Of a DNA stretch of 44,738 nt, positions 42,833-44,738 are shown in pieces (position 1 is the first letter of the stretch; every line of letters begins with the position of its first letter). Source of the DNA: Escherichia phage Zumzum; the sequence record PP925847.1, one strand, 5' to 3'. Below the pieces are notes generated by a model. The model did no database searches and had not been told where the DNA came from. It saw nothing but the letters and a program-made list of their open reading frames with translations. Made by a program: the position numbers and the translations under genes.

Positions 42833-44738
42833 TCAATTCGGCAATAGCCGCCTTCAGTTCTGCAATCTCTGCTTTATTAGCCTCGTCACGCGCACGCAAC
42901 GCCTTAATTGCCGCTAGGGCGTCCAGTAGCATTGGTGTCTGGTCGAGGTGATAGTACCCGCCGATCTCCTTCGTGTACTCTTTATCGATCTGGCGAATCT
43001 GCTGCGAGATAACACCGCGACGATACCCCTTACCGGCCTTCTCATCCTTAAACGAGAATATTTTAAATTCCATGCGGTTGATGTTATCGAGCGCACCTTC
43101 AACATTCAAATTACCTTTTACATTCTTCAGGCGTTCATCCGATACTGCTGTTTTAGTAAGCTCGTACCAGCCAGCCCAGGCGGCGTTGTTTGTTTGATTT
43201 CGGATGAACACCCTAGACTCGGTATTAAAATATCGCTGTGAGTACCATAGGCCAGAAGTGCCGCGGTCTTTAGAATCCCCCTGCGACACACCTTGCACAC
43301 ACTGCGTGAATAAAGTCCCGTAGTTATTACCCGCGAGCGGAGCATTTTGCCAGCCGCCGGACACCATACGCCAGCCTTGCGGTTGCGTGTTAAAGTTGAT
43401 GTTATTCGACGGGGCGCTGTTGCCGTCTGTAGGTAGCCCGCCGTTATACCCTACGAAGTGGAAAACAGTAGAGTTTGGCCTTGCGAACGCTACGACACGT
43501 CTGTTTGCGGTTGTGTCTTTCTGCATGAAGAACATATACATATTAACGCCTGTGTCGCTCTCAATGCTGACTCGCTTACCGATGAAATCGTCGGCTACTC
43601 TCGTCGACACCCACTCGAACGCTGGGTATGCCTTTTCAGATCTAACTCGTCCTGTCGAGTCGATATTTTCGTATGTTGGGGACGACCCTTGCAGGTAGAT
43701 CTCCTTCCACTCCGTCCACACCGCCCCAGCGAGCGAACGGACGAACCGACGCAGGCTTGAAAACGTGGTGTACTCCTGGATGCAAGCCTCCACACTACCC
43801 CCGCCGGTTTTAAACACGGTAAGACAACCGGCTTCCTGAAACGGGTAGTTACGCTCTGGTGTAGCGTTCACCGATGTGGTCTGATAATAACGCCCTTCCT
43901 TCGTGCTGTTGAGCGTGTTGAGGTCGGTAGCCCCCAGGTTAGAGTTTGACGCAAATAAAACTTGCAAGTTAGCGCGCGCCTCAGCTTTATCGGCAACGTC
44001 ATTCAGGTTTTGGGACTTCTGCACGAATAGTGCAGGGTTAATCTGGTTTTTAAAACCTTCCGCCTCATCACGGTAGCCTTGCGCCTGGTTGCGAGCGTTC
44101 TCTGCTCCGGTCTTCGCAGTATTAGCGGCGTCGCGCGCCGATTCTGCCAGCCCCTTAGCGGTCTGCGCGTCGGTCTTCGCAGTATTAGCGGCGTCGCGTG
44201 CCGTCTCCGCCCCAGTCTTCGCCGTATTAGCTGCGTCGCGCGCCGATTCTGCCTGCCCCTTAGCGGTAACAGCTTGGTTTTTCGCCGTCTCGGCCTGTTG
44301 TTGAAGGTTGCGCATCTCAACGGGGTCTACTTCCTTCAGCAAGGAGGACAAATAGCCCCACGACATACCCTGCATAACTTGCCCGTTAGGTAACGTCACT
44401 GTGATTTCTTCAGCGTCGCCGAAGATTGCACGCCAGTTGTTTTCATCTGCGATCATCAAGCGCAACGCTTTCTGTGCCTGGACGGTTACGCCCATCGTCG
44501 CCAGCGACATGGTGTCGCGCTTAACGCCATCCCACGCTAGTCCGGTTGCCGTAGGGCCGTCGAACGGCAGCACCAGCGTTAGCGCGGTTGCACTTTCAAC
44601 GGACGCGATCGCTACGGTGTAGGGGACTTGACCCACCACCAGCGTTAAGAAGTCGCCCGCTTTAAACGCCGTAAACGTTGTGCCGACCCCGACAACCGCC
44701 TTGCTGTTATTCGTTACGGATAGTGTACCCGCTGCCAT
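42825..44738 (-). CDS. tail fibre protein with tandem Ala/Thr/Lys repeats and a C-terminal intramolecular-chaperone-like region (637 aa)
   Basis: Repeats AKTGAETARDAANTAKT x3; ATG is the last three bases of the window; ribosome-binding site GAGGA is at window positions 6-10 on the minus strand. Confidence 0.7.
   Translation of the reverse strand: MAAGTLSVTNNSKAVVGVGTTFTAFKAGDFLTLVVGQVPYTVAIASVESATALTLVLPFDGPTATGLAWDGVKRDTMSLATMGVTVQAQKALRLMIADENNWRAIFGDAEEITVTLPNGQVMQGMSWGYLSSLLKEVDPVEMRNLQQQAETAKNQAVTAKGQAESARDAANTAKTGAETARDAANTAKTDAQTAKGLAESARDAANTAKTGAENARNQAQGYRDEAEGFKNQINPALFVQKSQNLNDVADKAEARANLQVLFASNSNLGATDLNTLNSTKEGRYYQTTSVNATPERNYPFQEAGCLTVFKTGGGSVEACIQEYTTFSSLRRFVRSLAGAVWTEWKEIYLQGSSPTYENIDSTGRVRSEKAYPAFEWVSTRVADDFIGKRVSIESDTGVNMYMFFMQKDTTANRRVVAFARPNSTVFHFVGYNGGLPTDGNSAPSNNINFNTQPQGWRMVSGGWQNAPLAGNNYGTLFTQCVQGVSQGDSKDRGTSGLWYSQRYFNTESRVFIRNQTNNAAWAGWYELTKTAVSDERLKNVKGNLNVEGALDNINRMEFKIFSFKDEKAGKGYRRGVISQQIRQIDKEYTKEIGGYYHLDQTPMLLDALAAIKALRARDEANKAEIAELKAAIAELKK

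Follow-up and report, generated by a model that had tools for sequence, protein, structure and literature searches.

Does the repeated DNA in the tail fibre gene of Escherichia phage Zumzum encode a shaft whose length can change by recombination, and does the fibre carry a self-cleaving chaperone at its end? Both ideas come from an earlier note on sequence record PP925847.1, a stretch of 44,738 nucleotides (nt) that we analysed whole and call the window. The interval singled out there, 44100-44280, sits within a 1914-nt minus-strand open reading frame (ORF; 42825-44738). A profile search matched the product over amino acids (aa) 1-637 to phrog_1980, 'tail fiber protein' (expect value, E, 1.5e-120), and megablast found the gene to be 94-98% identical in DNA to the annotated fibre genes of Over9000, EC115, BEK2-2 and TheodorHerzl (Bas14), all four of them Escherichia phages of the genus Dhillonvirus. 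Identity of the protein is 99% to one entry of a metagenome protein collection and 95-98% to annotated phage proteins, among them one that UniRef names "Peptidase S74 domain-containing protein". Gene order is shared with the four annotated genomes: upstream lie genes for a J-like tip protein, for two small products and for a cor-like lipoprotein, and downstream the hypothetical genes are the same. By homology, then, the gene encodes the lateral tail fibre of a Dhillonvirus (an HK578-like siphophage). Its ATG at 44738 is the start codon used in Over9000, EC115, BEK2-2 and TheodorHerzl. Window positions 1-330 align at 96% to the DNA that comes after the fibre ATG in Over9000 and EC115, and continue the relatives' upstream DNA. 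Thus, the window is a whole, circularly permuted Dhillonvirus genome cut at the fibre ATG, and the ORF is complete.

We located the three repeat copies quoted in the earlier note exactly where it had placed them: CGCAGTATTAGCGGCGTCGCGCGCCG at 44115, its C/T variant at 44178 and CGCCGTATTAGCTGCGTCGCGCGCCG, with two mismatches, at 44220. The coding strand of the repeat is the minus strand. The unit of ~60 nt proposed there was wrong, however: the copies are spaced by 63 and 42 nt, and autocorrelation at 60 nt gave a z score of -1.7. Autocorrelation over 44049-44321 peaked instead at multiples of 21 nt, with maxima at 105 nt (z 7.8), 63 nt (6.2), 42 nt (6.2) and 21 nt (3.7); the further top peaks, at 147, 84 and 126 nt, are multiples of 21 as well. 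Repeats are indeed present in the interval 44100-44280, but the true tract is the wider one just given and holds 13 heptads. Tandem Repeats Finder returned an array of 'period 30' (65% matches, 13% indels), which we overruled in favour of the periods of 21, 42, 63 and 105 nt. A separate repeat search recovered three copies of a 96-nt direct repeat (Table 1), the outer two of which (44088-44183 and 44193-44288) are 80% identical at a spacing of 105 nt.

The DNA units resemble one another closely. The longest exact direct repeat in the gene measures 28 nt, compared with 10.5 nt on average and at most 15 nt in codon-shuffled genes. When synonymous codons were resampled and the protein was kept, 0 of 2000 sequences reached 28 nt (mean 11.2, maximum 26), showing that the DNA units are more alike than the protein repeats need. 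This excess identity points to recent duplication or to continuing homogenisation of the units. Heptads 5 and 8 are identical at 21/21 nt, and heptads 2 and 7 at 20/21. BEK2-2 has diverged at positions where the heptads of the window match (DQANNAK; GGCCAGGCCGAATCCGCGCGC), a pattern that suggests intragenic conversion.

We then read the tract as protein. In order, its heptads are VEMRNLQ, QQAETAK, NQAVTAK, GQAESAR, DAANTAK, TGAETAR and DAANTAK, followed by TDAQTAK, GLAESAR, DAANTAK, TGAENAR, NQAQGYR and DEAEGFK. Position 3 is Met in the first heptad and Ala in the other 12 of the 13; position 6 runs Leu, ten times Ala, Tyr, Phe; and 12/13 heptads close with Lys or Arg at position 7. The spacing of positions 3 and 6 is, as far as sequence can tell, the 3-4 pattern of a coiled-coil core. 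AlphaFold2 run on the single sequence predicted a helix at 139-230 (predicted local distance difference test score, pLDDT, 64-77), the sole confident element of a model with a mean pLDDT of 38. When a 75-sequence alignment was supplied, the helix became an uninterrupted one at 139-232, with pLDDT of 78-89. With Ala at position 3 in 12/13 heptads, Ala at position 6 in 10/13 and one predicted helix over the tract, the repeats keep the reading frame and a heptad-like pattern, just as had been proposed. At 0.148 nm per residue the shaft would be ~13.5 nm long, or ~1 nm per heptad, and by analogy with other fibres it may be a trimeric coiled coil. A phmmer search gave a weak match of aa 159-216 to T7 gp17 (7boz_a, E 0.15). 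A Pfam match to DarP over aa 128-216 (E 0.056) we set aside as a product of composition in a helix rich in Ala and Lys. Leu197 is a substitution unique to the window among the fibres compared.

Does the number of heptads vary in nature? The four named relatives are 95-99% identical to the window fibre in aa, and alignment placed the gaps solely in the heptad tract and at the extreme C-terminus. Over9000 lacks 35 aa, that is 5 heptads or 105 nt, which is the higher-order period of the array (8 heptads); TheodorHerzl lacks 63 aa or 9 heptads (4 left); and EC115 has gained 15 aa, or 2 heptads and one Lys (~15 heptads). Metagenomic relatives carry in-frame changes of -2 and -7 heptads. The junctions of the length changes fall in repeated DNA: that of TheodorHerzl, QQAE/NAR, joins heptad 0 to heptad 9 within a shared GAGA. 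Of the 22 database proteins nearest to the window fibre (89-99% identity), 16 have 13 heptads, one has 15 and one residue, two have 11, and 8, 6 and 4 heptads occur in one protein each. The tract, together with an alternative C-terminal ending of +8 aa, accounts for all of the protein lengths among these 22 (574, 588, 602, 623, 631, 637, 645 and 652). The tract ranges from 3 to 16 heptads over the 119 family members in which the DPVE(M/L) anchor occurs, and in 117 its length is a whole multiple of seven residues. The earlier suggestion that recombination varies the length of the fibre thus gains from relatives that are 95-99% identical elsewhere and differ by in-frame heptad indels within repeated DNA; there is strong comparative support, drawn from sequence, that recombination or slippage between units yields in-register length variants. 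Our literature searches found no account of heptad-number variation in Dhillonvirus fibres.

The extra Lys of EC115 sits in AETAK-K-TGAETAR. Should the tract be a coiled coil, this residue and the extra residues of Gluttony_ev152 would be tolerated skips or stutters.

We next consider the end of the protein, where the earlier note had seen a likeness to the intramolecular chaperones of other fibres in the last ~100 aa. The peptide that it quoted lies at aa 533-637, and the likeness proved well founded. Pfam PF13884 ("chaperone of endosialidase") matches aa 533-587 with E 1.4e-8 and a score of 35.3 bits, where the cut-off is 22. Seventeen diverse C-termini of the family were aligned, and Ser533, Lys538 and Gly575 alone are invariant among them. 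A profile built from the family C-termini found solved chaperones, among them 8hqz (a T5-like L-shaped fibre, E 8.6e-31) and the ICA domain of MyRF, 7dc3 (E 2.3e-13), as well as 6f45, 8jov, 3gud (GA-1 appendage), 7y5s, 6eu4, 4uw8 (T5 pb1, E 0.013) and 3gw6 (K1F endosialidase); phmmer with the C-terminal 122 aa alone gave no significant hit in the PDB (best E 0.16). AlphaFold2 predicted a domain at aa 533-637 with pLDDT of 73-86 and a terminal helix at 600-636 (monomer model), and Foldseek superposed it on 7dc3 with a template modelling (TM) score, normalised to the target, of 0.63-0.67 and a root-mean-square deviation of 2.5 A over 119 columns (E 6e-5). By sequence and predicted fold, aa 533-637 are a member of the Peptidase_S74 family.

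The T5 fibre protein pb1 indicates what such a domain may do. There, Lys1269 activates the scissile residue, Ser1264; cleavage fails in an S1264A mutant, and the chaperone that is kept prevents the fibre from binding its receptor (PMC4690869). By analogy, self-cleavage between Val532 and Ser533 would yield a mature fibre of 57.6 kDa (532 aa) and a fragment of 11.9 kDa. The fibres of Dhillonvirus JLBYU60 have been described as ending in intramolecular autocatalytic chaperones (PMC12309495); the presence of the chaperone in Dhillonvirus fibres is therefore already published. A metagenomic relative, P0007 (98% identical), reads SDERLN in place of SDERLK, with Asn at the putative catalytic Lys, and could be either a variant that does not cleave or the result of a sequencing error. 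Length variation extends to the chaperone's terminal helix: the window ends in ...AELKAAIAELKK, while BEK2-2 and several metagenomic relatives end in ...AELKAAVAELKAAVAALTKA, which adds 8 aa (window 42825-42870). The ...AELKAAVAELKAAVAALTKA ending occurs too on fibres with unrelated receptor domains.

How would the fibre be attached to the virion? Among 75 aligned family members, residues 1-139 hardly vary, and many Dhillonviruses share this segment of the gene only (gene nt 1-448, 90-92% nt identity). Residues 1-73 match PDB 23gd_B (E 4.3e-5); direct comparison of aa 1-~75 with 25ve_A, the attachment domain of F2-pyocin side fibres, gave a weak match (E 0.089). The first ~70 aa of the fibre (44520-44738) are paralogous to the N-terminus of a 199-aa protein of the same phage (6884-7483, minus strand; 35% identity, E 6e-8). 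This protein adjoins the tape-measure gene, is nearly identical to 23gd_B, "Distal tail protein gp20", and matches 25ve_A with E 6.4e-5. In F-pyocins, the side fibre's N-terminal domain docks on the coiled coil of the central fibre (bioRxiv 10.64898/2026.02.24.707460). By analogy, docking of this pyocin-like kind is a plausible mechanism of attachment.

The region between the shaft and the chaperone is likely to hold the receptor-binding function. Its pLDDT is high at 270-350 and 450-530 and below 50 at 350-433. Foldseek yielded only weak, elongated matches of low TM score to phi812 and pyocin fibres, and the sole Pfam candidate, CE2_N, remained below threshold (E 0.091). From aa ~256 to 629 (window 42850-43970, minus strand), a stretch that takes in the receptor-binding region and the chaperone, the fibre is ~82% identical in nt and ~85% identical in aa to the 674-aa fibre of the Tunavirus IME18 (2416-4440). 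IME18 belongs to another family, the Drexlerviridae, and the N-terminus of its fibre is unrelated to that of the window fibre. StarDew and Sponge, conversely, share only aa 1-257, and their homology ends where that of IME18 begins (~256, ARxNLQV). The ARxNLQV motif near aa 256 behaves in these alignments as a module-exchange junction between phage families. Because the homologies of IME18 and of StarDew and Sponge break near aa 256, and others break at the anchor, the gene is a mosaic in which the heptad tract lies between two recombination junctions. The motif of the linker that follows the helix also matches the repeated nLxDVxNKAxARxNL units of the short tail fibre gp92 in PDB 9zd7. In the BASEL papers, the lateral fibres of Dhillonviruses are described as probably binding O-antigen first, with the central fibre then engaging a porin. 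The receptor of the window fibre is likewise probably a glycan or O-antigen.

Taken together, these results make it very likely that the gene encodes a four-module lateral fibre with an in-register, recombinogenic heptad shaft and a self-cleaving S74 chaperone. By analogy with other fibres, the protein would be a homotrimer of four modules. An N-terminal domain would dock the fibre on the tail tip. An alpha-helical coiled coil of 13 alanine-cored heptads, ~13.5 nm long, would follow and carry a beta-rich receptor-binding region, probably specific for a glycan or O-antigen. The 105-residue chaperone would nucleate folding of the trimer from the C-terminus and then sever itself between Val532 and Ser533, with Lys538 activating Ser533. 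In the DNA, misaligned recombination or replication slippage between the near-identical units would add or remove whole heptads, and a change by whole heptads would keep both the reading frame and the register of the coiled coil. On this account, the differing shaft lengths of natural relatives result from such exchange or slippage. The anatomy of the repeat, the excess DNA identity, the whole-heptad polymorphism of relatives, the S74 membership by sequence and predicted fold and the Ser/Lys pair are shown by our data. The trimeric state, the coiled-coil packing, self-cleavage, the type of receptor and any effect of shaft length on fitness are parts of this scheme that we infer.

Several points weigh against it. 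Proteomics of Dhillonvirus EE09 detects a 606-aa fibre and is silent on processing. Counterparts of the folding-sensor residues, an Arg and an Asp that a neighbouring chain supplies upstream of the cleavage site in T5 and K1F (T5 Arg1250/Asp1239), were not identified from the monomer models. The AlphaFold2 models are all monomers, with an overall predicted TM score of 0.29, and trimer packing and the coiled-coil core lie outside their reach. The fibres of EC115 (+1 aa) and Gluttony_ev152 (+2 aa) break the heptad register, showing that the constraint is not absolute. Finally, sequence alone cannot separate recombination from slippage.

How do other explanations fare? An S74 domain that is present but catalytically inert, or retained as a cap, seems to us unlikely. 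It would suit the Asn that P0007 has for the catalytic Lys, the Val that precedes the scissile Ser here in place of the Thr of T5, and the fact that cleavage of the window fibre is argued by analogy; to go by the title of a paper on Alteromonas phages, their fibres reportedly bear 'transient chaperone caps'. Yet all 17 aligned sequences keep Ser533 and Lys538, the Pfam score is well over its cut-off and the predicted fold matches that of a self-cleaving ICA domain. Moreover, the uncleaved domain of T5 blocks receptor binding (PMC4690869), so retention would probably be harmful. It is improbable, too, that the tract is no coiled coil at all and forms another repetitive fibre fold (a beta-helix or a spiral) or a flexible linker. 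A nearly all-Ala core would be unusual for a classical trimeric coiled coil, and the helix predictions are monomeric. However, small or hydrophobic residues keep a 3-4 spacing over 91 residues, without Pro or Gly-rich breaks, and even without an alignment no element is predicted with more confidence than the helix. The 117 of 119 relatives that keep the seven-residue register are expected if helical phase matters, and a resemblance to the T7 gp17 helical shaft is seen in the heptads at the flank (GYRDEAEGFKN).

The variation itself might be spurious. Most of the variant lengths are known from a single record or contig, and assembly or sequencing artefacts could then explain the differences in heptad number; we give this very little credence, since the longest exact repeat of 28 nt is shorter than any modern read, which makes collapse unlikely, since the shortest allele (TheodorHerzl, 4 heptads) is found on 6 contigs from several sources, and since all variants are in frame and nearly all in heptad register, unlike random errors. 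Hardly credible is the idea that the repeat is a cis-acting element, a target of recombination or diversity generation, or a hidden overlapping gene. The repeat, rich in guanine and cytosine (GC-rich), does leave stop-free frames, with ORFs at 44079-44393 (plus strand), 44089-44304 (plus strand) and 44003-44320 (minus strand). We treated these overlapping ORFs as artefacts of stop-free GC-rich repeats, and their products, judged without a homologue search, are low-complexity strings of Arg, Ala and Ser. The tract contains neither inverted repeats nor promoter-like sites, an invertase or reverse transcriptase is annotated beside the fibre gene in 0 of 4 relatives, and the variation proceeds by whole units and not by targeted base substitutions.

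We compared the four-module fibre with known systems. The published Dhillonvirus fibres (TheodorHerzl/Bas14, Over9000, EC115 and BEK2-2; JLBYU60) are encoded at this locus too, downstream of both J and cor, have the same anchor, heptad shaft, receptor region and S74 end, and are 95-99% identical in aa outside the repeat. They differ only in heptad number (13 here; 4, 8 and ~15 in named relatives) and in a few substitutions. T5 pb1 likewise is a lateral fibre that binds a surface glycan and carries a C-terminal chaperone (~105-133 aa), with a Lys five residues past the scissile Ser and a terminal helix of a trimeric coiled coil. It is unlike the window fibre in its size (1396 aa), its shaft, its bullet-shaped receptor domain and the Thr (Val here) before the Ser, and the similarity of the chaperones is remote (profile E 0.013). 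The K1F endosialidase (3GW6), the GA-1 neck appendage (3GUD) and the MyRF ICA domain (7DC3) belong to the same Peptidase_S74 family by Pfam, profile and predicted fold; their S74 domains follow triple beta-helix or tailspike bodies, whereas that of the window follows a beta-rich receptor domain.

For the shaft, T7 gp17 (7BOZ/7EY9) provides a parallel, in which a helical heptad shaft separates the N-terminal virion adaptor from the distal binding domain. Its motif RNQAEGFKN resembles RDEAEGFKN of the window, a non-significant similarity (E 0.15) that makes this an analogy and not a homology. Compared with gp17, the core of the window shaft is almost purely Ala, and its units are near-identical in DNA and vary in number among close relatives. 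T4 fibritin, with its coiled-coil shaft, has a comparable helical heptad shaft. At the other end of the protein, the F-type pyocin side fibres PA0643/PA0646 (25VE) have an N-terminal domain of ~75 aa whose signature, G(T/S)(L/V)SVT.NS.AV.G..T.F, is also seen in the window fibre; direct similarity is weak (E 0.089), the distal parts are unrelated, and the link rests mainly on the gp20-like protein of the phage as an intermediate.

What does the locus add? The shaft repeats and the S74 end are ordinary features of a known gene. The sole mildly new point is that near-identical Dhillonvirus fibres form a series differing in heptad copy number; the remainder was already known. The main use of the analysis is to annotate the modules of Dhillonvirus fibres: an anchor at 1-139, a shaft at 140-230, a junction at ~256, a receptor region at 263-532 and a chaperone from Ser533. 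The module boundaries are natural cut points for receptor-module swaps in host-range engineering, and the heptad series in near-identical phages is a natural experiment on shaft length versus adsorption. Neither alters the general understanding of fibres. As a long shot, the heptad array might be a contingency locus for fibre length, in which frequent in-register gain and loss (4 to ~15 heptads among near-identical phages, roughly 4-16 nm) tunes the reach of the receptor-binding tip. If this were true, phage populations would match fibre reach to the thickness of the O-antigen or capsule of different hosts, and selection would favour intragenic conversion as a means of keeping the units recombinogenic.

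Table 1. Features of the fibre locus in window coordinates
Feature	Position	Strand	Description
Lateral (side) tail fibre gene	42825..44738	-	ORF; 637 aa, 69.5 kDa precursor; phrog_1980 match; Dhillonvirus relatives
N-terminal virion-attachment region	44322..44738	-	aa 1-139, conserved; anchor domain aa 1-~73
Heptad tract	44049..44321	-	aa 140-230; 13 in-register heptads xxAxxA(K/R); predicted alpha-helical shaft, ~13.5 nm
96-nt direct repeat copies	44088-44183, 44151-44246, 44193-44288		repeat search; spacings 63 and 42 nt; span 44088..44288
28-nt exact direct repeat	44107-44134 and 44170-44197		longest exact one in the gene
Linker or collar after helix	43953..44048	-	aa 231-262, NQINPALFVQKSQNLNDVADKAEARANLQV; module junction at ARANLQV
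Receptor-binding region	43143..43952	-	aa 263-532; mostly beta by AlphaFold2
Peptidase_S74 intramolecular chaperone	42825..43142	-	aa 533-637 plus stop; 11.9 kDa; extreme C-terminus of the 637-aa protein
Putative catalytic codons	Ser533 43140-43142; Lys538 43125-43127	-	motif S533-D-E-R-L-K538
Hairpin terminator	42799..42822	both	GC-rich; terminator-like hairpins of 10 and 8 pairs; between two convergent genes

The surroundings of the gene yielded a few further observations. The hairpin downstream is common to the fibre gene and to a convergent gene at 42222-42797 (plus strand), whose 191-aa product has no Pfam match. The cor-like superinfection-exclusion lipoprotein is encoded at 81-299 on the plus strand (MKTLIMICGVLLSGC...). 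The J-like tip protein (1332-4751, minus strand, 1139 aa) contains a long, Ala/Gln-rich and apparently helical stretch near its C-terminus (...AQLETLIGTRLDDAEAAIHTLQTAQSTQEQAFAQYQQTVAAKFSEQEAAIQSVQ...), which recalls the central-fibre coiled coil on which the side fibres of F-pyocins dock.

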